Source: Ferroacidibacillus organovorans (lineage in GTDB: Bacteria > Bacillota > Bacilli > Alicyclobacillales > SLC66). From it: DNA of 64,000 nucleotides. The notes under the pieces were generated by a model. The model was not told the DNA's origin and made no database searches. It was given only the letters and a program-made list of their open reading frames with translations. Position 1 is the stretch's first letter, and each line of letters begins with the position of its first letter. The stretch is from NCBI RefSeq assembly GCF_001642725.1, contig NZ_LSUQ01000001.1, positions 1-64,000 of the forward strand. Direction: 5' to 3'. This document shows positions 23,373 to 34,477 of this stretch, in pieces. The position numbers and the translations under genes were made by a program.

Positions 23373-24329
23373 TTATACTGGTTTTTTCAAAAATCGCTGC
23401 AAAAAGACGAGTGAGAGAGCACCGACGGGAATCGGTAAATAAAAAGAGATGAAGCGATACATCAGAGTGCCTGCAATCGCCATCGATAAAGGGACGCCGT
23501 AGCTGTGAACGACAGTTGCGAGCACAGCCTCCACGACGCCAATTGTCGTCGGCGCCAGTGACACGAGTACCAAAAGGGACGTGATCGAGTACGAGAGCAC
23601 AGCGAGCCAAAGTGAAATTGGGACGTGAATCGCCTGAAATGCGGTGTACACCATGACCATCCGAACGACATAAACGAGAAAAAGGTATACACAGGCGAAC
23701 AAAAATGGGATGGGATGGTGCTGCATCCGTTTCCATTCTTCTCGAAGAATCGTTAAAGTATGCGAAGCCCGCTTGCTTTTCTGCCCAAAACGCGAAATCA
23801 GAAAGTAAAGAAGCAAAACGCCAAGACTCACAGCTACCGCGATAAGCAGTCCCACTCTAATGAGGTTTGCTTCCTGCCCGTTCGTTGCAAACGCGGCAAA
23901 CAGACAAAGAAGCAGCAATGGGACGAGTGAAACGTAGCTGAGCGCGAGTGACCACAGATTGGTCGCCGTCGTTTCTTTTAAGCCATACCCTAAACGATTT
24001 CCCCAGAAAATGAAAGCGGCAGTCCCTGATGCGCCAGACAAAGGCAAGACAGCGTTATACATGGTTTGCAATGTATAGAGCACAGTGAGCAAAAGGAGCG
24101 GAACCTTTCGCTGCATGGTTGCAAAAAGCACGCGGCCGGATGCCCCTTGTAGCAGAAAGAACAGCAGTTGAAGGGCGAGTAGCGCTGCGACCCCCCAGGC
24201 GTTTGCGTGAAGCAGATAGGGCCAAGAACGCGCCAACTCTCCGCGCTCTTTGTCGATCAGGTAGACGATCAGACCAGCCGTCGCGAAAAGCAAAAAAATC
24301 GACCATGCGCGTGAGAAACGCTTTCTCAA
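23373..24329 (-). CDS. Lysylphosphatidylglycerol-synthase TM (UPF0104) flippase-like membrane protein
   Basis: About 8 TM segments; PTTIGVVEA...GTLMYRFISFYLP. Confidence 0.8.
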   Translation of the reverse strand: MRKRFSRAWSIFLLFATAGLIVYLIDKERGELARSWPYLLHANAWGVAALLALQLLFFLLQGASGRVLFATMQRKVPLLLLTVLYTLQTMYNAVLPLSGASGTAAFIFWGNRLGYGLKETTATNLWSLALSYVSLVPLLLLCLFAAFATNGQEANLIRVGLLIAVAVSLGVLLLYFLISRFGQKSKRASHTLTILREEWKRMQHHPIPFLFACVYLFLVYVVRMVMVYTAFQAIHVPISLWLAVLSYSITSLLVLVSLAPTTIGVVEAVLATVVHSYGVPLSMAIAGTLMYRFISFYLPIPVGALSLVFLQRFLKKPV

Positions 24330-24470: not shown

Positions 24471-27400
24471 TTGCACTTGTCTGAAACAGCAACCGTCATC
24501 CACGAATTGCCAGGACGCATTCGGGTGCGCGTCAAATGGATTCACGTTCGGCAAAATGAGCAGGCGACCGTATTGCGTGCGCTGCGCGAATTGCCAGGCA
24601 TGGTGCGCTTGGAATTAAACACGTTGACAGGAAACCTGTTGATCTTGTTTCAGCAAGGGGAAAATCGTCAAGATCACGTTGTGAAGTCGATACTGTCAAC
24701 CATCGAAGACACCTTGCGCACAACAGAAAATTCGCACGCCGACACTTCGAAAGAAATGTCTGGCGGGACGGTGACCTTACCCTTTAAATATGCGCAAACG
24801 GCTGCTGCACATCTGAGCGTGGACAGGGGTTGCGCAGAGCGAGGATGTGGACTGTCTACTCAAGAGGCGAAAGAGCGTTTGCGCCAGTATGGGGAAAATC
24901 GCTTGCCACTTTTGCGTGATACACCGTGGTGGAAGCATGTCCTAAAGCAAGGTCAGGATGGCATGACGCTTTTGCTGCTCGGGTTGGCGGGTCTATCCTT
25001 TGTCTCAAAGCGTACCGCAGAGGGTAGCGCCCTTCTCATTGTCATCATGGTCAACAGCGTCGTCACAGTCCTTCAGCAACATCGTTCAGGGCGCGACAAG
25101 CGAACGCTTGCCGCAATGACAGACGGAGATGCAATCGTGTTTCGCGATGGACGACGCGAGCATCTTGCTAAAGAACTGCTCGTACCAGGGGATCTCGTTT
25201 GGCTGGAAGAAGGGATACAGGTGCCTGCGGATGGCGAACTGATCGAATCGCATCACCTCGCGTGTGATGAATCCCTTTTAACAGGGGAGCCCCTTGCGAT
25301 CGAAAAAAATGCTGCCGCGCTCAGTGCTAAAACGACGGTGCGTGAACAAAATCCTGACGGCGTGACGTCTGCGTCAGGCGTTGTGATGGGCAGCTTTGTC
25401 GTGCGCGGAAACGGTGTCATGCTCGTCACACAGACTGGTTCTGAGACGGTCATGGGAAAGATTGCAAAAGGACTTGTAGAGCCAACGCTGGTTGAAACGC
25501 CGCTTCAGCGCAGTGTGTCCCGGTTTTCGCGCGCGGTGGTCACTACGATAGGGCTTTCCACTGCGCTTTTGATTCTCGTTGGGATCTTGCGCAAAGAGCG
25601 TGTGGGACCACTGCTCCTCTCAGCGCTAAGCATCGGGGCGTCCGCGATTCCGGAGGGTCTTCCTGTGTTGATTGGCATCGCCTTGACGGCGGGCGTTCGC
25701 CGCATGCAGGCGCGCAAGGCGCTTGTACAAAAGCCGTCGGCGCTCGAAACACTCGGGCGCAGCACGGTGATCTGCTCTGACAAAACGGGAACACTAACCA
25801 AAAATGAGATGACCGTGCGCGTGCTGTTTGACGGCACGCATGTCAGGGTGCTTCCTGATTTGGATGTTCTGTCGACAAGCGATATGGATCAACCGCTTCG
25901 CGCGTCAGGCCACGTGGTCAATCTGCTCACAAAGGCGGTTTTATGCAGTAACGCAGAGTGGGTGGAGGCCGAGCGCGATGGAAAGACAGAGTGGACACTG
26001 CGCGGCGATGCCACCGAAGGGGCGCTTCTTGCGGCCGCCTGCAGAGCGGGAATCGCTCTGCGGGAAATTCGCGCAAAGTATGCGCGCCTAGATGAGCGCC
26101 CCTTTGAGTCGGAGCGCCAGCGTATGAGTGTCATCTGCCAAGGCTTCTCAGGTAGTGAACTGATCGTAAAGGGAGCGATCGAACCCATATTTGCGCGTTG
26201 TGCGTTCTATCAGTCAGAAGACGGGCTCTGTGAATTGGATGACGCGAATCGCGCGCGCATTCTTGCCATCGCGAACGATTTTTCTCGGGAGGCATACCGA
26301 GTGATCTGCCTTGCGTATCGCCCGCTCCCGCACGACGTTCCGGCGCGCGCGGTGGATGAGAACGAAGAGAATCTCATCTTTCTCGGGCTCGTAGGCATGG
26401 AAGATCCGCCGCGTGAACATGTAGAACAAGGCATCCGCGCATGTCGCGATGCAGGGATTCGCGTCTTAATGATGACCGGGGATCACCCGGAAACGGCGCG
26501 CGCGACCGCGCGCAAAATCGGACTTTCGACGTCACAAGCGGAGCGTGTGCTTGTGGGGAGTGAACTCACGGAATACTCGGATGAGGCGTTGCAGCGCGTG
26601 TGCCTTGATGTATCGATTTTTGCGCGCGTCACACCACAAGATAAACTGCGCATCGTCGCGGCGCTCAAAGCGACCGGCCATGTCGTCGTGATGACCGGGG
26701 ATGGGGTCAATGACGCGCTGGCGATTCGTCACGCAGACGTCGGTATTGCCATGGGACAGAGTGGGACGGCGCTTGCGCGCGAGGCGAGTTCGATCACCTT
26801 GGTCGACGACGATTTTAACGCGATCATTCGCGCGGTCGATGAGGGACGGGGGATTCTCGGTAATATCCGCCGGGCGCTTGGATACCTGCTCTCTGGAAAT
26901 CTGGGAGAAATCTTGTTCAGTCTACTCTCCGTTCTCTTCGGGTTACCGCTTCCCTTTGTTCCGATTCAGATTTTGCTGATCAATCTGCTGACCGACGCGG
27001 CGCCGACACTCACGCTGCTTGTGCGCCCCAAACGACACGCGGGCATGTTGCGCGTTCGCGAGGCGGATTTGAATGACCGCAACTTTCTCACGCAACTCGT
27101 TGTACGCGCACTCTCAATCGGTTTCTCAACGTTTTTGCTCTATCGCTCGCTGCTACTGCGTGTCGCACCGCGCATTGCGCAATCGGCTTCGCTCACTACG
27201 CTGGTGCTTGTCCAGTGGTTTCAAGTCGAAAGTTGGCACCACGACGGCGCCGCACCGCAGCGCATCCTTCCACGTCAACGATCCATGCAAGGTGTTCTTG
27301 CTGTCAGCTTTGCCGCGCTCATCGGAGCGCTTTATATTCCGCCGCTTGCAGCGCTTACCGGGCTTCAGCCGCTTTCGCTCGGCATCTTCTTTGCGGCTGT

Positions 27401-27494
27401 TACAACAGCGTACGCCGCCCAACTACTTCATGGAGGGATCATGCAATGCCTGAGACACTTGAAAATAAGCTCCACGCCATCTCTGCAGCACTAA
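24471..27494 (+). CDS. P2-type (Ca2+-like) P-type ATPase with an N-terminal HMA_2-like domain
   Basis: VIHELPGRIRVRV N-terminus; TGE, IPEGLP, CSDKTGT, KGA, DPPR, TGDGVND, GNLGE, NLLTD. Confidence 0.9.
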   Translation: MHLSETATVIHELPGRIRVRVKWIHVRQNEQATVLRALRELPGMVRLELNTLTGNLLILFQQGENRQDHVVKSILSTIEDTLRTTENSHADTSKEMSGGTVTLPFKYAQTAAAHLSVDRGCAERGCGLSTQEAKERLRQYGENRLPLLRDTPWWKHVLKQGQDGMTLLLLGLAGLSFVSKRTAEGSALLIVIMVNSVVTVLQQHRSGRDKRTLAAMTDGDAIVFRDGRREHLAKELLVPGDLVWLEEGIQVPADGELIESHHLACDESLLTGEPLAIEKNAAALSAKTTVREQNPDGVTSASGVVMGSFVVRGNGVMLVTQTGSETVMGKIAKGLVEPTLVETPLQRSVSRFSRAVVTTIGLSTALLILVGILRKERVGPLLLSALSIGASAIPEGLPVLIGIALTAGVRRMQARKALVQKPSALETLGRSTVICSDKTGTLTKNEMTVRVLFDGTHVRVLPDLDVLSTSDMDQPLRASGHVVNLLTKAVLCSNAEWVEAERDGKTEWTLRGDATEGALLAAACRAGIALREIRAKYARLDERPFESERQRMSVICQGFSGSELIVKGAIEPIFARCAFYQSEDGLCELDDANRARILAIANDFSREAYRVICLAYRPLPHDVPARAVDENEENLIFLGLVGMEDPPREHVEQGIRACRDAGIRVLMMTGDHPETARATARKIGLSTSQAERVLVGSELTEYSDEALQRVCLDVSIFARVTPQDKLRIVAALKATGHVVVMTGDGVNDALAIRHADVGIAMGQSGTALAREASSITLVDDDFNAIIRAVDEGRGILGNIRRALGYLLSGNLGEILFSLLSVLFGLPLPFVPIQILLINLLTDAAPTLTLLVRPKRHAGMLRVREADLNDRNFLTQLVVRALSIGFSTFLLYRSLLLRVAPRIAQSASLTTLVLVQWFQVESWHHDGAAPQRILPRQRSMQGVLAVSFAALIGALYIPPLAALTGLQPLSLGIFFAAVTTAYAAQLLHGGIMQCLRHLKISSTPSLQH

Positions 27495-27661
27495 AGGATG
27501 CGATTGAAACGAGCGTTGATGCGTTTCAAAGCGGTGTCGATAAAAAGGAAATAGGTCAGTTGTGGAGTGGCATGCTCAGTCAGTTCATGGAGGATATGCG
27601 CAATAAAAGTCGGAGTACCGGGGAAAACTTGCTGGCATGGGTTCGCATGCCGCGCATCTAG
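27446..27661 (+). CDS. Small helical hypothetical protein (71 aa)
   Basis: GGAGGG SD then ATG 27446; MPETLENKLHAISAALKDAIETS...; fills the gap in the operon. Confidence 0.65.
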   Translation: MPETLENKLHAISAALKDAIETSVDAFQSGVDKKEIGQLWSGMLSQFMEDMRNKSRSTGENLLAWVRMPRI

Positions 27662-27688
27662 CGGATTGCCTCTGAAAGGTTGAGAGAA

Positions 27689-28138
27689 ATGAACAGACTG
27701 CTGTGGGTGGGGCTTTTAAGTTTGGTGATCGCCTCGCGAGCAAAGGACGAGCGCAATTTTCGTTCGCAGGTGGTGCGCACCGTCGTGAATGGCATGCGCG
27801 CTGCAGATCTCGCCAAAGTGTCTGTCGCACGCTTTAAAGAGGTGGGCGAAGACCTATTAGCGGACGTTCGCTATCAGTATGAACAGCGCACGCGAAAAGC
27901 GGCTGATTCTTTACAAGAGTTGCCAAGCCCATCTGACTTTCGTATGATGGACGCGACAATCGAGAGACAGGAGAGCCGCCGACATGCGAATACGAATGTG
28001 GATGCCAGCGACTGGAATTCTGTTGCTCTCCCTCGCGTCTTGGTACGCGAGTGTAAAGGCGTGGAGTCCGCCACTGACGTTTCTACTTTGCGCGCTTACG
28101 ATCATCGCACTCGCGCGACGCATCGGGTCATCCACTGA
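27689..28138 (+). CDS. Small membrane-anchored protein, DUF5132-like
   Basis: Hydrophobic N-terminus, then RTVVNGM...ARFKEVGEDLLADVRYQYE amphipathic helix; 3' end overlaps cax by 155 nt. Confidence 0.55.
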   Translation: MNRLLWVGLLSLVIASRAKDERNFRSQVVRTVVNGMRAADLAKVSVARFKEVGEDLLADVRYQYEQRTRKAADSLQELPSPSDFRMMDATIERQESRRHANTNVDASDWNSVALPRVLVRECKGVESATDVSTLRAYDHRTRATHRVIH

Positions 28139-29042
28139 GCATCTCGCGCGGCACCTTGGCTCGACGCTTGGAGCGTTGCTGTCCGCCACATTTGGAAACA
28201 GCGTTGAACTGATTCTGTCTATCGCGGCGCTGCGTGCAGGACTCTATCGCGTCGTTCAGGCGAGCATCGTGGGCAGTGTCCTCGCTAATCTTCTGCTGAC
28301 ACTCGGTGTCTGCATGATGATCGGCGGCGTCACACAGAAGGTGCAGGTGTTCAGCCGCGCTCGCGCAGGGTTGAACAGTGTGATGCTTTTTATTGCCGTA
28401 TTCGGTCTCTCCATGACGAGTCTATACCAATATTCAGGTACGCACGCAGGCCACGCCAAAGCGCTTGGCGTCAGCATTTCCATCGTGTTTTTACTGATCT
28501 ATGCGCTCGGATTTGTGTTTTCCTTCTTCACACATCGGAGTTTCCTGGTGCCCGCCGAGTCACTCGGTGGGCAAGAGCGTCAACCGGGGTCACTCTTTCC
28601 ACACATGGTTGAATTGATTGTCGCTACGATCCTAGTTTCGATTGTCAGTGAGGGGATTGTCGGTTCAATCGTACCGCTCTCCGCGCGGTTTGGGATCTCG
28701 GAGCCGTTTGTTGGCATGATCCTCTTACCACTGATCGGAATCGCACCTGAATTTTTCTCCGCAATATTACTTGCACGGCGTGGGAATTTGGATGGAAGCA
28801 TGGAGATTGGACTCGGATCAAGTTTGCAAATCGCGCTCTTTGTGGCACCCGCACTCGTGCTTACGGATACGGCGATGCGCGGGAAATTTACACTTGTTTT
28901 TACGCCTGTGGAGGTACTCGTACTCTTTTTGTCGACCCTTTTGGTGAGTCTTGTCTCACTTGACGGGGAGACCCACTGGTACGAGGGAATGATGGTGACG
29001 GCCGCTTACGTCATGCTGGGATTGCTCTTTTTCTTTCAGTGA
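27984..29042 (+). CDS. Ca2+/H+ antiporter (CAX/ChaA family)
   Basis: ATFGNSVELI alpha-1 repeat, GSVLANLLL, GSSLQIALFVAP, DGETHWYEG. Confidence 0.92.
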   Translation: MRIRMWMPATGILLLSLASWYASVKAWSPPLTFLLCALTIIALARRIGSSTEHLARHLGSTLGALLSATFGNSVELILSIAALRAGLYRVVQASIVGSVLANLLLTLGVCMMIGGVTQKVQVFSRARAGLNSVMLFIAVFGLSMTSLYQYSGTHAGHAKALGVSISIVFLLIYALGFVFSFFTHRSFLVPAESLGGQERQPGSLFPHMVELIVATILVSIVSEGIVGSIVPLSARFGISEPFVGMILLPLIGIAPEFFSAILLARRGNLDGSMEIGLGSSLQIALFVAPALVLTDTAMRGKFTLVFTPVEVLVLFLSTLLVSLVSLDGETHWYEGMMVTAAYVMLGLLFFFQ

Positions 29043-29069
29043 AATGGACAGCGTGGATCAACAGGGGGT

Positions 29070-29762
29070 GTGGGTGTGTACAAAAAAATCACTCGCCACA
29101 CGGTGTGGATGCTACTATTTGCCCCGCTCGCGCTTCTTCTCATGATTCTTTTTTATCGCTCTGGAAGCTGGACAATCCTTCCTACATACCTGGAAAAATT
29201 GGGACATGCCGGAATCGTTTTAAGCTACCTGTTGGTGGTGCTTCAGACGGTGGTCCCGTTTGTCCCCTTTGCCATTCTAGCGGGTATGAATGCGACTGCG
29301 CACGGATTCTTCACAGGCTATCTGGCGACACTTTTCGGGAGTTTCACAGGCGCACTCCTTCTTTATGGCTTGAGCAAAAGTGTGCTGAGACCGCTTTTCA
29401 GCCGCTATTTAAGACGTTTTTTTGCGCGCCACCAAAAATTGCAAACTGCCGTATCCCGGATCGAACAGGCAACGCCGTGGTCCACCTTTTTTACCGTTTT
29501 GGGTTTGCGCTTACAGTTCTGGCTTCCGGCATCGCTCATCGATGTTTCTGCAGGGATTTCTTCCGTGTCCTTTGTACCCTTTCTTTTTGGTACACTCATC
29601 GGACAGGCGATCATGGTTCTACTCGAGAGTTATGTGGGGCATCGCGTGCTACATTTCCAAGCTCACATGGCTGAACTCGCAGGAATCTGCGTGATAGGGG
29701 GGGCCATTTTGGCGACAAATTTCATTTTGGCAAAACGGAGAAGGCGAAAGCTGAACTCATGA
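29070..29762 (+). CDS. TVP38/TMEM64 (DedA superfamily) membrane protein
   Basis: QTVVPFVPFAIL.G, LRL...P..LID..AG, FLFGTLIG. Confidence 0.85.
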   Translation: MGVYKKITRHTVWMLLFAPLALLLMILFYRSGSWTILPTYLEKLGHAGIVLSYLLVVLQTVVPFVPFAILAGMNATAHGFFTGYLATLFGSFTGALLLYGLSKSVLRPLFSRYLRRFFARHQKLQTAVSRIEQATPWSTFFTVLGLRLQFWLPASLIDVSAGISSVSFVPFLFGTLIGQAIMVLLESYVGHRVLHFQAHMAELAGICVIGGAILATNFILAKRRRRKLNS

Positions 29763-30415
29763 TGCACGCGCTGTATTCCTTTTTTGCCATCCTTCTCACC
29801 GATTTGGTTCTTTCGGGAGACAATGCGTTTGTGATCGCGATGGCGACACTCCATCTCGCCCCAAGCGCGCGAAAGCGCGCGATGCTTTACGGTGCGGCAG
29901 TCACGATTTTGCTCAGGGTGTTACTCACGCTCGTCCTCGGACGCGCGCTCACGTGGCCGTACTTACAGACGATTGGTGGCTTGCTTTTGCTCTACGTCGC
30001 CTATTCCGTCTTGTTTCATAAGGATTTAAAAGTAGCGTCTGACGAGCAAACAAAGCGCGGCGTTCTGTCAACGGTCGCAACCATTCTAATCGCCGATCTC
30101 ACAATGAGTGCAGATAATGTGGTGGCGGTGGCGGGAATTGCGCAGGGCAATGCAGTGATGACGGCGCTCGGTCTTTTAGTGAGTATTTCTCTTTTGATGT
30201 TTGCCAGTTCTTTGATTGCCAGGCTGATGGCGCGTTTGGCGATTCTGCGATGGATTGGGGCAGGCGTTCTCGCGTGCACGGCGGGCGTGATGTTTCACAG
30301 TGATCCAGGGATCGCTCACTTTTTTGGGGCGCGGTCGATCTACGCGCCGATTTTCGGATTTGTACTTGGATCTGTACTCTATGTCGCGTCGCGCAAATGC
30401 AACGTCAGCTTTTGA
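29759..30415 (+). CDS. TerC-family (YjbE-like) metal-transport membrane protein
   Basis: DLVLSGDNAFVIAMA and ADLTMSADNVVAVAG. Confidence 0.9.
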   Translation: MMHALYSFFAILLTDLVLSGDNAFVIAMATLHLAPSARKRAMLYGAAVTILLRVLLTLVLGRALTWPYLQTIGGLLLLYVAYSVLFHKDLKVASDEQTKRGVLSTVATILIADLTMSADNVVAVAGIAQGNAVMTALGLLVSISLLMFASSLIARLMARLAILRWIGAGVLACTAGVMFHSDPGIAHFFGARSIYAPIFGFVLGSVLYVASRKCNVSF

Positions 30416-30978
30416 GCAAACGCGATCTGCCAAAAATCCGCTTTCTTTTTTAACAGATGATCTACATCGTCAGGTGAGAGTCCGCTCACAACGAGTGTGA
30501 CCTCGCGGGAGGTGCGCTTGATCTCGTGAAGGACGGCCGTCCCGAGATGTGATCTGTCGAGACCGTCGGCGACGCGCAGGCATGCGCAACAGGCGAGCAG
30601 GTCGCGCGCTCTGCCAATTTTGTCGATCCAAGAAGGTTTAACGCTGCGCCTGTGATAGAAACACAATGTTGCGACATCCTCTTTGAGTGTCGCATCCCAC
30701 GTGGCCGTCTCGCGCGCGTGTCGGACGATGTAGCGGGAGTGCTTGTGATGGTTTCGCGAATTTATGGAATGCCCCACATCATGGAGATAGCCAGCCAATT
30801 CGAGTGTTAATTGGGCGGCTTGCTGCGCCGCTTCGCCACGCATGCCGAGATAGAGCGTTTGCGCGAACGAGGCGACGCGCATGCAGTGCGCGCGATCGGT
30901 TTGAAAATGGTTCATCGCGCGCAGCGCGTCATGTTTGTATTTTGCGAGTGACAGAGCGACCGAAGTGGGATCTTTCAT
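30379..30978 (-). CDS. Stand-alone HD-domain protein resembling the Ppx/GppA C-terminal module
   Basis: H...LHDVG....HHKHS...YHRR...LRVADGLDRSH. Confidence 0.85.
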   Translation of the reverse strand: MKDPTSVALSLAKYKHDALRAMNHFQTDRAHCMRVASFAQTLYLGMRGEAAQQAAQLTLELAGYLHDVGHSINSRNHHKHSRYIVRHARETATWDATLKEDVATLCFYHRRSVKPSWIDKIGRARDLLACCACLRVADGLDRSHLGTAVLHEIKRTSREVTLVVSGLSPDDVDHLLKKKADFWQIAFAQKLTLHLRDAT

Positions 30979-31673
30979 TTGCGAATCAGGCGTGAGACGT
31001 GCGTGCGCAGGGTCTCCTGCACCTCTTCAATCGCGCGTGTGCCGTCAAGTGTAACAAAATGATAGTCTTCTGCCAGTTCTTCAAACTGCTGTGCGCAAAG
31101 AGACTGATAGCGATGAAAGCTTTCAAACATGTCCGTCGACAAAGAGAGGTCCATGCCAGATTCCCAGTAATCGAGAACGCCGCGTTTTTGAAAATGGCGA
31201 TGCAGCAACACTTCGGGTGTCATATGCAAATAAAACGTGAGATCCGGAATGCGCGCAAAGCCAAACAGCTCTTCTAGCCAGTCAGGATCGGCGCCACGCA
31301 CGGCGTCGCGAACCATCAGCGTAAATATGTAACGATCCGCAAGCACGATAAATCCTGCCCGAAGCGCCGGAATGATCTTGTTTTCCAATTGATCTGCAAA
31401 ATCGGTCGCGTAAAGCAGGCTGAGTGTCGTCTTGCCAAGGACATTGCCCTCTTTTGCTTGATCGATAACACCGCTGACGAGGGTGGAACGCTTGATCCCT
31501 GTGTCCATGACCGCGTGTCCTTCATACTCGAGCCACTGTTTTAATAAAAATGCCTGGGTCGATCGCCCTGAACAGTCGGCGCCTTCGATCACAATCAGCT
31601 TTCCGGCGTACGTCTCATCCTTCAGATAGGGGAGACCTGCGCCGTAGTAGGTTTTCTTCGACTCATCCATCAC
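30975..31673 (-). CDS. Thymidylate-kinase-fold protein B with a degenerate P-loop (candidate PPK3-type partner subunit)
   Basis: IVIEGADCSGRST (Lys->Arg), LADRY. Confidence 0.8.
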   Translation of the reverse strand: MMDESKKTYYGAGLPYLKDETYAGKLIVIEGADCSGRSTQAFLLKQWLEYEGHAVMDTGIKRSTLVSGVIDQAKEGNVLGKTTLSLLYATDFADQLENKIIPALRAGFIVLADRYIFTLMVRDAVRGADPDWLEELFGFARIPDLTFYLHMTPEVLLHRHFQKRGVLDYWESGMDLSLSTDMFESFHRYQSLCAQQFEELAEDYHFVTLDGTRAIEEVQETLRTHVSRLIRK

Positions 31674-31696
31674 CGTAGCGCTCCTCTCGTCTTTGC

Positions 31697-32404
31697 TTAT
31701 CGCGTGGTTAAATGATAGGGAAGTTCATAATCCGTCAGATGCTTCTCGACGATCTCGCGCACGATGCGCTGTTGTTCTTCAATCGGTTTTGTCGCGTCGA
31801 CGACCGTAAAATGCTCCTCATCGATCATCGCGTCATAGTGATCCTTGATTTTTCCCTGAAACAACTTGAAGCTCTCGATGGGGTCGGTCGAGAGACCGAG
31901 ATCGAGACCCGCCTCATGGTATTTTAACTGTGGACGCCCACTCAAGATGCGATCGAGCGAAACGGCGAGCGGTGTCTGGAAATAAAAGCTGACCGTTGGT
32001 TTGACCGCGAATCCATACATGTTCTTTACCCAGTCCGGGTCACACCCGCGCGCCATGTCACGCGCATACGCGGTGTATACATAGCGGTCAGCAAGGACGA
32101 TGTAACCTGCGCGCAAATAGGGTAGCATCATCTTTTCATAACGGTCGGCAAAATCGCACGCGTGAATCAGACTGAACGTCGTTGGCGTCAACAAATTCTT
32201 TTTCTTCGCCTTTTTATTCGCCGATTTGATGAGTTCACTGGAATTCCACTCTGTAAAAAAGACAGGGTATCCGCGGTCTTCGAGCCAACGTTTCAACAAG
32301 TAAATTTGCGTGCTTTTTCCTGAGCCGTCGTTTCCTTCTACAATAAAAAGTCTCCCCGGATAATGCATGCTGCGGCCGAGTCCACGTGCTTTTTTTAGTC
32401 GCAT
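31697..32404 (-). CDS. Thymidylate-kinase-fold protein A with an intact P-loop (candidate PPK3-type catalytic subunit)
   Basis: FIVEGNDGSGKSTQ, TEWNSS, LADRY; AAGGAG SD. Confidence 0.8.
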   Translation of the reverse strand: MRLKKARGLGRSMHYPGRLFIVEGNDGSGKSTQIYLLKRWLEDRGYPVFFTEWNSSELIKSANKKAKKKNLLTPTTFSLIHACDFADRYEKMMLPYLRAGYIVLADRYVYTAYARDMARGCDPDWVKNMYGFAVKPTVSFYFQTPLAVSLDRILSGRPQLKYHEAGLDLGLSTDPIESFKLFQGKIKDHYDAMIDEEHFTVVDATKPIEEQQRIVREIVEKHLTDYELPYHLTTR

Positions 32405-32408
32405 ATCG

Positions 32409-33914
32409 TTACGGTGCTCCTTTTTCTGATGAGATGGAAAGCGGGAATCCAAACGCTTTGCGAAAGAGTGGAAGCAAATCATTTGCCGCCTGATACTCAA
32501 GATCGCCTTCGTCCGCGTGCACGTAAAGGACAGCCTGTTTCTTTTCGGTCTTCAGTCGAACCGCCGAAACGCGCTTTTCGTGGCGGCGATCAAGCGCTTC
32601 GGCAAGGCGGACAATCACGCCGATTTTTGTGATTTCTGTAAGATCGTCTTCACTGAGCAAAGTGCGAAACGGCGCACACTGCTTCCGTGTCCTGTTGCGT
32701 CCCTTGTAGGAGGCGGCTGCCGCGACCATCAACAGTTCGCGATGCGTAAGTCCATAAAGGGTGCCGTTTAAGATCAAATAAAAGGTGTGGCGGTCAAAAT
32801 CATAATAGTGAATGTGAATCCCGACACGATGGAGCATAGCGGCCGCATAGAGCAGGTGGAGCCGCGCAGGATCAAGATCACCTCGCTCGCAAAGCGGCGT
32901 TGCAATGGCGAGTGCCAAGTGTGTCACGGTTTTTGCGTGATCGATTGGAACGCGACAGCGTTCGAGCAGATTGTGGACGCTTGTCTCAAGAACGCCTTCG
33001 GTAAGCAGACCGTTGTCAGTGCCTAAGACGCGTGTAAAAAATGTCCCGTCGCGCAGCCCGCGGCCGCTGATGCGCAGCACGGAGGACGCGGTATAGCGCA
33101 TGAGGCTGAGGAGAATCATACCGCCGGGAACGATCAGATCGGCGCGGTCTTTAGAGAGTCCCTCCACCTTTTTGCGCCGGGCGAGCGGTATGTCACCCAG
33201 GTAGGCAACCGTTTCCTCGACATCTGTTTGCTGCATGAAATAATTATGCGTAAGCGCGAGGGGGTAGCCGCTGAGTCCTTGGTGGACGCGCGCAATCGTG
33301 CGGATGGTGCCGCCGATCCCGATCAGTTCCATGTTCTTCGCCTGCGTGAGTAGTTCCACCTGCGGGAAAAGGGTTTGGATGCGCTGCATCATTTGCTCGC
33401 GAGACAGTTGACCTAGATCGCGATTCGCGGTGACTGCGCCAATGGGAAAGGAGTGTGACGCGATAGCCGCTCCGCTCCTGACAAGGGTGACTTCGGTGCT
33501 GCCGCCGCCAATGTCGACGAGCAGCGCATCACAAAGCTTCATGGTGTTGGCCACCGCGCTAAAACCGAGCGCGGCTTCTTCGACGCCAGGGATGACTTCG
33601 ACGTGAATCCCGGTCTCGCGCTCAATGCGCTCGACGATCTCTGCGCGGTTCTTGGCTGCACGTAAAGCGGCGGTTCCCACGGCTTCGATGCGTGTGGCGT
33701 GGTGGGCGCGGCAAAGTCCGATGAAACCTTGTAGTTTCTCGATCAGGTCGCGAATGGCATCCTCTGCGATCGCTCCATCACGCTTGATCTGTTGGCTGAG
33801 TCGCGGAGATGCCTTCTGTTCATCAAGCACGTAATAGGCGCCACTTTGCAAGGAAGCAATGATCGAGAGACGCATGGAGTTTGAACCGATATCAATGATC
33901 CCGGTAACGTTCAC
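32409..33914 (-). CDS. ppx: Ppx/GppA exopolyphosphatase with a degenerate HD-like C-terminus
   Basis: IDIGSNSMRL, GTAALR, EEA, DIGGGSTE, GIGGT, RADLI, GLRDG; AAGGAG SD before GTG 33914. Confidence 0.92.
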   Translation of the reverse strand: MNVTGIIDIGSNSMRLSIIASLQSGAYYVLDEQKASPRLSQQIKRDGAIAEDAIRDLIEKLQGFIGLCRAHHATRIEAVGTAALRAAKNRAEIVERIERETGIHVEVIPGVEEAALGFSAVANTMKLCDALLVDIGGGSTEVTLVRSGAAIASHSFPIGAVTANRDLGQLSREQMMQRIQTLFPQVELLTQAKNMELIGIGGTIRTIARVHQGLSGYPLALTHNYFMQQTDVEETVAYLGDIPLARRKKVEGLSKDRADLIVPGGMILLSLMRYTASSVLRISGRGLRDGTFFTRVLGTDNGLLTEGVLETSVHNLLERCRVPIDHAKTVTHLALAIATPLCERGDLDPARLHLLYAAAMLHRVGIHIHYYDFDRHTFYLILNGTLYGLTHRELLMVAAAASYKGRNRTRKQCAPFRTLLSEDDLTEITKIGVIVRLAEALDRRHEKRVSAVRLKTEKKQAVLYVHADEGDLEYQAANDLLPLFRKAFGFPLSISSEKGAP

Positions 33915-33992
33915 AGATGCACTCCTTGCATAGAGAGATTTCAAAGGGATTTCACGGATCAACCCGTGCGTGCGCGCGAGGCGCACATGGCG

Positions 33993-34089
33993 GTTCGTGT
34001 AACGCAGAGCGTTCGTGTAACGCAGAGCGTTCGTGTAACGCAGAGCGTTCGTGTAACGCAGAGCGTTCGTGTAACGCAGAGCGTTCGTG
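33993..34089. repeat. Perfect tandem repeat of the 18-bp unit GTTCGTGTAACGCAGAGC, 5 copies plus a 7-nt partial
   Basis: Read directly from the sequence; units are contiguous with no spacers. Confidence 0.97.
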
Positions 34090-34180
34090 ACACGCGGCAC
34101 ACGTTTTCTGTAGTATAGAGTTTGTCCTCGTGAAGAGCAAAACGGGTGACGATTGGGAAAGAAAAAAAGCAGGTGAGATT

Positions 34181-34477
34181 GTGACGAAACGGTTTACCAT
34201 CGATGATGTTGCGGGGATGTTTCAGGTGCGCAAAGAAGACGTGCGGGTGGCACTCGTTCGTCTCCAAGAAATGCGTTCGCTGTCCGCTGAAACCTTTTTT
34301 TATGCGGGAGAGGCTGCGCGGATTGCGCCGTCTGATCTTGATCGCATTCGGCGAGAACTCGGTGCATTAAAAGAGGCGCCCATAAAAGACGAAACCGCGT
34401 CCCAGCGGGGGACGCGGCGTATCATTCGAAAAACCGTGCGGCTTGCCGCAGAGGAAGATTCACCCCCCGACGCCTGA
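34181..34477 (+). CDS. Small protein with an N-terminal MerR/excisionase-like HTH signature
   Basis: FTIDDVAGMFQVRKEDVR; AGGTGA SD before GTG 34181; basic C-terminal tail. Confidence 0.6.
   Translation: MTKRFTIDDVAGMFQVRKEDVRVALVRLQEMRSLSAETFFYAGEAARIAPSDLDRIRRELGALKEAPIKDETASQRGTRRIIRKTVRLAAEEDSPPDA

Follow-up and report, generated by a model that had tools for sequence, protein, structure and literature searches.

The first 64,000 nucleotides (nt) of contig NZ_LSUQ01000001.1 (assembly GCF_001642725.1) of Ferroacidibacillus organovorans, an acid-mine member of the Bacillota with a genome of 3.03 Mb (96.8% complete), here called the window, contain between positions 24,471 and 34,477 two operons that run towards each other: a plus-strand set of cation transport genes and a minus-strand set of polyphosphate genes. 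A preliminary description of this DNA had read the two as one system, which would load calcium or manganese into polyphosphate granules or a membrane compartment. All 10 genes that it named were found in place by a profile and open reading frame (ORF) check of the window, and the comparison across genomes reported here points to two separable modules lying tail to tail, probably a PPK3-type polyphosphate operon and a divalent-cation export operon.

The plus-strand operon, described beforehand as a P2 ATPase, two small proteins, a Ca/H exchanger, DedA and TerC, was recovered complete. It begins with a P2A (calcium-type) P-type ATPase of 1007 amino acids (aa) (24471..27494; Pfam E1-E2_ATPase, Cation_ATPase_N/C and HMA_2), which carries an N-terminal CoBaHMA domain (Pfam HMA_2). 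This is followed by small1 (27446..27661), a soluble helical protein of 71 aa whose gene overlaps the 3' end of the ATPase gene by 49 nt, and by small2 (27689..28138), a protein of 149 aa with an N-terminal membrane segment and a long helix, the last ~150 nt of whose gene overlap the start of the Ca2+/H+ exchanger gene, CAX (27984..29042; TIGR00378, 265.5 bits against a cut-off of 211.15). A DedA/VTT-domain membrane protein (29070..29762; PF09335, E 7.4e-13) and a TerC-family protein of the YjbE subfamily (29759..30415; TIGR03717, 167.2 bits against a cut-off of 134.8) complete the operon, the TerC start overlapping the DedA stop by 4 nt. The TerC protein is a putative Mn/Ca exporter, and the DedA protein shows weak similarity, far under the cut-offs, to the UptA models.

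On the minus strand, the order of transcription is ppx first, then the two kinase-fold genes, here called A and B, and the HD gene last, again the full set that had been listed before. The exopolyphosphatase PPX (32409..33914; Ppx-GppA domains I-III; PF02541 E 1e-50, PF21447 E 2e-17) is encoded by a gene that is single-copy in the host genome. Its start is read as the GTG at 33914 behind AAGGAG, since the first ~60 codons of the listed 563-aa ORF (to 34100) are read-through of an 18-nt tandem repeat. The catalytic-type kinase-fold gene A, Thymidylate_kin family, covers 31697..32404 within an ORF that is open to 32500; relatives keep the ATG at 32404, 4 nt after the ppx stop. Gene B (30975..31673), of the same fold and family, follows after a gap of 23 nt and is joined by a 4-nt ATGA overlap to the gene of a stand-alone HD / Ppx-GppA domain III protein of 199 aa (30379..30978; PF21447 E 8e-21, PF01966 E 2e-11). 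Given this tight spacing, each strand reads as one operon. The ends of TerC (30415) and of the HD gene (30379) bear out the 37-nt convergent 3' overlap of the two operons that had been noted previously.

By homology, the two kinase-fold genes are identified as encoding a PPK3-type polyphosphate kinase, one its catalytic and the other its regulatory subunit. In Sulfolobus acidocaldarius, two "thymidylate kinases" encoded beside ppx form a heteromeric, reversible polyphosphate kinase, cPPK3 plus rPPK3 (PMC12995831, J Biol Chem 2026). As presented there, PPK3 is the third polyphosphate kinase (PPK) family, its bacterial members are "a few taxonomically scattered bacteria", and the S. tokodaii protein STK_15430 (PDB 2plr/5h70) is a cPPK3 homologue. 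In a search of the Protein Data Bank, A scored 215 bits and B 165 bits against 2plr/5h70, and the best true thymidylate (dTMP) kinases reached at most 56 and 50 bits, respectively. The host genome contains three PF02223 matches: a canonical tmk on another contig (C17), at 143.6 bits, and the A/B pair, at 77.4 and 75.8 bits. Neither PPK1 nor PPK2 turned up in the host genome, and PPK3 is therefore its only recognisable polyphosphate kinase; here as below, absences are called from draft genomes, and distant transporters can escape tblastn with a single query. An acid-mine Bacillota lineage thus has a PPK3 as its sole recognisable enzyme of this kind. The preliminary description was right about which genes these are, and the polyphosphate side has turned out stronger than it had supposed; its step from there to a single system gained no independent support.

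The assignment of subunits follows from an alignment of sequences from PPK3 loci and the window, 80 of A-type and 77 of B-type. The A-type sequences conserve the Walker A lysine, R120, D138 and R139 of the DRY motif, and R189 and K193 of the lid, in 80/80 cases each, and A of the window keeps GSGKST, DRY, R189/K193 and the basic patch KKAKKK. In the B-type sequences, the Walker A lysine has become arginine in 74/77 (GRS in place of GKS in the window) and R120 has become glutamine in 73/77, and both the lid residues R189/K193 and the K92-K101 basic cleft patch are lost. With intact motifs in A and degenerate ones in B, A is read as the catalytic subunit and B as presumably a degenerate, non-catalytic regulatory subunit. 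One feature weighs against this division of labour: the DRX arginine (as DRY) is retained in all 77 bacterial B-type sequences, that of the window included, so that full inactivity of B is not certain. In the archaeal rPPK3s this arginine is not conserved, according to the legend of Fig. S14 of the PPK3 paper (PMC12995831). The bacterial regulatory subunit is degenerate in another manner than the archaeal one, with the Walker A lysine changed to arginine and the DRX arginine kept.

A PPK3 pattern scan of species-representative genomes returned 166 related stretches, and locus counts use the best 80 of these. The A and B paralogues are adjacent in 79/80 loci, the sole miss lying at a contig end; ppx stands within 10 kb of the pair in 66/80; and a homologue of the HD gene is present in 24/80, mostly directly after the regulatory subunit and chiefly in Bacillota. 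These best 80 loci come from several bacterial phyla, and databases still label such genes as dTMP kinase. Within the order of the host, the pair occurs in 12/41 genomes, 10/19 in the host family and 2/22 in the sister family, which includes Alicyclobacillus. PPK1 over cut-off was found in 0/19 genomes of the host family and 12/22 of the sister family, and PPK2 in 6/19 and 0/22, respectively. The same gene order is present in Sulfoacidibacillus thermotolerans. The rows listed from Data S1 of the PPK3 paper (PMC12995831) include none for Sulfoacidibacillus, and the term "HD domain" is absent from its main text. The polyphosphate side of the locus is, judged by homology, an additional bacterial member of the published PPK3 family, whose regulatory subunit has degenerated differently and whose operon includes an HD accessory.

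Among solved structures, the pump of the cation operon scored best against LMCA1 of Listeria monocytogenes (PDB 6zhf, 9euq; 428 bits), followed by SPCA1 (375) and SERCA (330). It carries the catalytic motif DKTGT, together with PEGLP (M4), GNLGE (M5) and N-L-L-T-D (M6), which we take, on SERCA numbering, to map to the Ca sites; across 16 aligned homologues, DKTGT and PEGLP do not vary, and the other two vary little or not at all. It falls under every NCBIfam subfamily cut-off (TIGR01522, 496.6 vs 798.3 bits; TIGR01116, 438.7 vs 703.4 bits), and only the general P-type model TIGR01494 passes. The HMA_2 (PF19991) head occupies the first ~105 residues (~24483-24758) and scored 35.7 bits against a cut-off of 30 when residues 1-130 were searched. 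The CoBaHMA domain was first described at the N-terminus of calcyanin, with a signature in which a histidine precedes strand 1 and strands 1-2 contain basic residues (PMC8890360). The corresponding segment of the pump reads HELPGRIRVRVK; the domain lacks a CxxC motif, has the sequence H-E-L-P-G-R-I-R-V-R-V-K, and its R16 and R18 are invariant in the 16 homologues. Elsewhere in the genome, on a short contig, a second P2-type ATPase (C88:193-2727) shares 38% identity over residues 127-977, has no CoBaHMA head and is probably an ordinary Ca2+ pump.

Both small genes are real, as they have orthologues in every relative with the ATPase and are missing from the two that have CAX, DedA and TerC and lack the ATPase (genomes G009 and G018). 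small1 follows the ATPase in 8 family genomes, and the copy in the window has no Pfam or NCBIfam match. HMA_2 was found in 44/401 sampled genomes of the phylum, and 15/20 fetched loci hold a P2 ATPase with a CoBaHMA head; in 7/15 such loci of other Bacillota families, a small1 homologue of 76-81 aa stands beside or near the pump (L150:8585-8830, L151:3930-4163, L152:3245-3478, L157:14050-14283, L158:14188-14421, L159:5805-6041 and L161:5586-5816). The small1 family as a whole measures 70-81 aa, with S23, W40 and N61 invariant, and its recurrence beside CoBaHMA pumps in distant Bacillota makes it a likely pump accessory. Positional orthologues of small2 with the motif REE[LW]ED-VAE-[KR]Y were found in G001, G003, G005, G006, G007, G012, G015 and G016, and none in G009 or G018. 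Of five small2 members, three resemble DUF5132 (PF17195; E 0.017-0.052, 14-16 bits, below the cut-off of 25) and two DUF6110; the copy in the window matches only DUF6110, at a sub-threshold E of 0.18. By their co-occurrence with the ATPase, small1 and small2 belong with the pump. The literature searched did not describe CoBaHMA pump clusters beyond the neighbourhood of ccyA. The cation operon adds a member to these clusters and defines a small partner protein that is conserved.

In other Bacillota, the CoBaHMA P2 ATPase frequently has another HMA_2-headed ATPase as its partner, the two genes usually being divergent or adjacent. The second enzyme has ~740-755 aa in three loci (L145:14817-17063, L157:5601-7826 and L158:5644-7911) and is a P2-type ATPase of 1012 aa in a fourth (L146:7965-11003). 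In L154, an ATPase of ~740 aa lies beside the pump and has no HMA_2 match at E 1e-6.

The comparison of gene neighbourhoods, proposed beforehand as a check on the single-system idea, separated the host family from everything else. Outside the family, tblastn (E <=1e-4) found ATPase, CAX, DedA or TerC homologues within 10 kb in 0/73 PPK3 loci, which span Bacillota, Chloroflexota, Geobacteraceae, Verrucomicrobiota, Terriglobia and others. Seen from the side of the pump, 0/20 HMA_2 loci of other Bacillota families held a homologue of the PPX, PPK3, HD, CAX, DedA or TerC proteins of the window, and PP_kinase, PPK2, Ppx-GppA or CHAD occurred among the ten nearest genes in 0/14 CoBaHMA-pump loci (a Pfam scan of 14 of the 15, one near-duplicate being left out). 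The ten nearest genes of these 14 pumps include one PstS-like binding protein. The sister family has its CAX homologue on its own in 10/10 loci. The literature searched contained no paper joining PPK3, polyphosphate and a P-type ATPase. Unlinked operons in other genomes had been named beforehand as a result that would refute the single-system idea, and this is what was seen outside the family. The claim of one calcium/manganese-polyphosphate system is not borne out, and adjacency is still what speaks for it.

Inside the family, several observations weigh against treating the two operons as separate. In 9/10 family PPK3 loci, from six genera, the cation genes adjoin the PPK3 operon and converge on it as they do in the window. 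This adjacency is kept in spite of considerable divergence of the cation proteins (34-56% identity): in eight relatives outside the genus, identity to the window is 34-40% for the ATPase, 49-56% for CAX, 41-49% for TerC and 80-86% for cPPK3. A 3' overlap of similar length to the 37 nt of the window was seen in at least two relatives, and in G006, G007 and G013 the contig breaks off within the cation operon or just behind it, in one of them inside the HD gene, so that these three say nothing about linkage. Gene order in the family is kept far beyond chance expectation.

The genes that flank the two operons, encoding an M42 peptidase, NYN, orf115 and GH18, are equally syntenic in the family. The whole 15-kb neighbourhood is thus conserved, and adjacency inside the family says little about function. 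In G008, NYN is the immediate neighbour of the HD gene that ends the polyphosphate operon, and the 91%-complete assembly gave no CAX match. The five family genomes without the block are also without the M42 peptidase and their GH18 is only 32-35% identical, so that no clean insertion or deletion boundary was found in them. The juxtaposition is a trait of the Sulfoacidibacillus-type family, inherited with the surrounding synteny. That the modules are separable is supported by their lack of linkage outside the family, by G008 with PPK3 only, by G009 and G018, which lack the pump and both small genes, and by the absence of a shared operator.

Upstream of ppx, the 18-nt tandem repeat (33993..34089) consists of 5.4 perfect copies (Tandem Repeats Finder score 194, 100% matches). 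Each unit holds the palindrome GCGTT-N5-AACGC, and the array separates a -10-like TATACT from the ppx start. It occurs nowhere else in the genome, and the sister species has about two degenerate copies, which indicates a recent expansion. The structure predicted for the ppx leader RNA is not significant (z-score -1.39). The contigs of four metagenome runs all break at this repeat, and run X5 contains short repeat-only contigs at 3.4-4.5x the flanking depth. By eye, two relatives (L037 and L039) show direct repeats TTGACA-N5-TTAACA-N4-TTCAT some 60-100 nt before ppx, immediately upstream of its -10 box; they were not seen in the promoter of the window and recall the PhoP boxes of Bacillus.

Divergent from ppx lies orf115 (34130..34477, plus strand), a small conserved protein with no family match that is syntenic in 9/10 family relatives with a PPK3 locus and absent from 73/73 PPK3 loci outside the family. 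Its N-terminus resembles a short helix-turn-helix by eye, with no profile match. It may be a local regulator, a candidate for reading the repeat array. At the other end, divergent from the ATPase, lies the gene of an LPG_synthase_TM-family membrane protein (23373..24329, minus strand; Pfam PF03706, E 3e-23), which adjoins the ATPase in G001, G003, G005, G012, G016, G006, G007 and G013 and is also present in the ATPase-less G009. This gene is taken as a syntenic neighbour only.

On the reading that we consider probable, the two modules would work side by side. Subunit A (cPPK3), going by its family membership, would transfer phosphate reversibly between ATP/ADP and polyphosphate, with B as non-catalytic partner in an A2B2-type assembly like the alpha2beta2 enzyme of S. 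acidocaldarius, and by analogy with SaPPK3 the kinase may favour ATP formation at low energy charge. PPX would trim terminal phosphate off polyphosphate, and the HD / Ppx-domain III protein would serve as an accessory to this operon. The cation module would export Ca2+/Mn2+ across the cell membrane by three routes, the pump using ATP, CAX using the large proton gradient of an acidophile, and TerC. DedA may have a lipid or carrier role, and the CoBaHMA head and small1/small2 probably regulate or anchor the pump. Ion specificity, the direction of transport and the independence of the two modules are points that we infer.

A looser connection, which needs no compartment, is unlikely, although several observations fit it. 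Polyphosphate would buffer cytoplasmic Ca2+/Mn2+ and other cations, its breakdown by PPX and PPK3 would free phosphate and cations, and the pump, CAX and TerC would expel the latter, the operons being kept together so as to be co-expressed in metal, acid or phosphate stress. Metal tolerance by way of polyphosphate is an established model in acidophiles. The divergence-resistant adjacency in the family and the convergent, overlapping 3' ends agree with such a connection, and the same DNA was found at a word share of 0.80-0.92 in sediment, mine-drainage and unspecified metagenome runs. A -10-like (G/T)ATACTAC box at matching places in both promoters, in five genera, was also considered a sign of co-regulation and was rejected, as it is a generic sigma-70-type -10 ([GTC]ATACTAC occurs 59 times in the genome and the 10-mer 4 times); a sporulation-type (sigma F/G) reading of these boxes was dropped because there is no consistent -35. 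No operator common to the two promoters was seen, the ppx-leader palindrome having no copy near the ATPase promoter, and no Rfam match at gathering score was found in the whole window, a yybP-ykoY riboswitch before TerC included. Convergent overlapping transcripts would moreover be expected to interfere with each other, not to be co-expressed, the locus is without a phosphate or metal-phosphate carrier, and the lack of cation genes near the 73 other PPK3 loci, and of polyphosphate genes near the 14 CoBaHMA pumps, tells against such a coupling.

More specific, and decidedly improbable, is the idea that the CoBaHMA pump, its small partners, CAX, DedA and TerC service an intracellular Ca(Mn)-phosphate body whose polymer PPK3, PPX and the HD protein make and trim, the basic face of the CoBaHMA domain sensing polyphosphate rather than anionic lipid and so gating the pump. 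If this were true, the family would possess a Gram-positive, pyrophosphatase-free counterpart of acidocalcisomes, and the uncharacterised CoBaHMA pump clusters would be tied to phosphate mineral storage. The side-by-side layout makes the locus an obvious place to ask whether CoBaHMA pumps have to do with the storage of phosphate.

An acidocalcisome-like Ca(Mn)-polyphosphate body proper, in which the pump, CAX and TerC would load an internal membrane, DedA and the LPG_synthase_TM protein would shape it, and PPK3 and PPX would make and trim the polymer, is very improbable. The gene set fits the list of Ca-ATPase, Ca/H exchange, and polyphosphate synthesis and hydrolysis, and the cluster includes two lipid-handling membrane proteins. 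A further point that counts for such a body, and against simple export, is that the CoBaHMA head of the pump, the DUF5132-like protein and CAX make up the set that recurs around ccyA, the marker gene for calcium carbonate inside the cell in Microcystis, and heterologous expression of ccyA raised Ca in polyphosphate granules, as reported by Benzerara et al. 2022 (PMC8890360). On the other side stand the single genome copies of CAX (one tblastn match), DedA and TerC, of which CAX and TerC are for that reason probably needed at the cell membrane, the lack of linkage outside one family, and the relative with PPK3 and without the cation genes. The three transporter types (ATPase, CAX and TerC) are all known to carry ions out of the cytoplasm. 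An H+-pyrophosphatase is the marker of bacterial acidocalcisome-like bodies; PF03030 had no match in the host genome (a control matched in 4/14 named genomes), and no gene for a CHAD granule protein was found there. To our knowledge, polyphosphate bodies enclosed by a membrane have not been reported from Bacillota. As a hypothesis, the acidocalcisome idea did not pass the comparative-genomic test.

Scarcely credible, finally, is the view of the pair as nucleotide or small-molecule kinases in an operon that, with a GppA-type phosphatase and an HD hydrolase, would turn over nucleotides or the alarmone pppGpp: it can point to the NCBIfam DTMP_kinase scores (87.8, just over the cut-off of 83.25, and 82.2), to the pppGpp phosphatases within the Ppx-GppA family, to the PPX score of 263.4 bits against TIGR03706 (exo_poly_only; cut-off 307) and to the activity data presented in the PPK3 paper, which concern one archaeon and no bacterial PPK3 (PMC12995831), yet a canonical tmk with twice the score lies elsewhere in the genome, the nearest solved relative is a cPPK3 homologue that matches four times better than any dTMP kinase, A keeps the basic KKAKKK cleft, and the archaeal orthologues are without dTMP kinase activity (PMC12995831).

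Among known systems, the polyphosphate operon is closest to SaPPK3, which is made up of Saci_2019 (cPPK3) and Saci_2020 (rPPK3), encoded beside ppx Saci_2018 (PMC12995831). As in S. acidocaldarius, the host pair is adjacent and lies beside ppx, one subunit is intact with a basic cleft and the other degenerate, a canonical tmk is found elsewhere, and neither PPK1 nor PPK2 was found. Unlike SaPPK3, it belongs to a bacterium, an acidophilic member of the Bacillota, and is known here from genes alone. Unlike the archaeal rPPK3, subunit B keeps the DRX arginine and has arginine for the Walker A lysine, and unlike the archaeal operon, that of the host ends with an HD / Ppx-domain III gene, with SixA and CHAD, accessories of the archaeal operon, not seen among the ORFs scanned.

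With acidocalcisomes and bacterial volutin bodies the locus shares genes for a Ca2+ pump, Ca2+/H+ exchange, and the synthesis and hydrolysis of polyphosphate; acidocalcisome-like volutin bodies in bacteria have reportedly been described by Seufferheld et al. It differs from them, in this comparison of gene content, in that no H+-pyrophosphatase gene was found in the host and that linkage of the genes is confined to a single family. The TerC protein resembles YjbE, as a member of the YjbE subfamily and a putative Mn2+ exporter. Bacillus subtilis has the TerC proteins MeeF/MeeY, and YjbE/YkoY are controlled by riboswitches; unlike these, the host terC has no yybP-ykoY riboswitch that could be found and is translationally coupled to the DedA gene behind CAX.

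In Microcystis, ccyA shares its location and its expression with genes for CoBaHMA proteins, DUF5132 proteins and a CAX (bioRxiv 10.1101/2024.07.07.602159). The cation operon is like the ccyA locus of Microcystis aeruginosa PCC 7806 in bringing together a CoBaHMA protein, a small protein with a membrane segment and a long helix (here weakly DUF5132-like) and a Ca2+/H+ exchanger. It is unlike that locus in that the CoBaHMA domain is fused to a P2A ATPase and not to a DUF454 hairpin, the likeness to DUF5132 is sub-threshold, and the neighbour is a polyphosphate operon. Unlike Microcystis, the host is a non-photosynthetic acidophile, in which carbonate would be unlikely to be stable. The pump itself is comparable to LMCA1 and SPCA1/SERCA, sharing DKTGT, PEGLP in M4 and N-x-x-T-D in M6. 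In M5 (GNLGE), it has a glutamate at what we take, on SERCA numbering, to be the position of an alanine in LMCA1, and unlike LMCA1 it carries an additional CoBaHMA head of 105 residues and is accompanied by two dedicated small partner genes.

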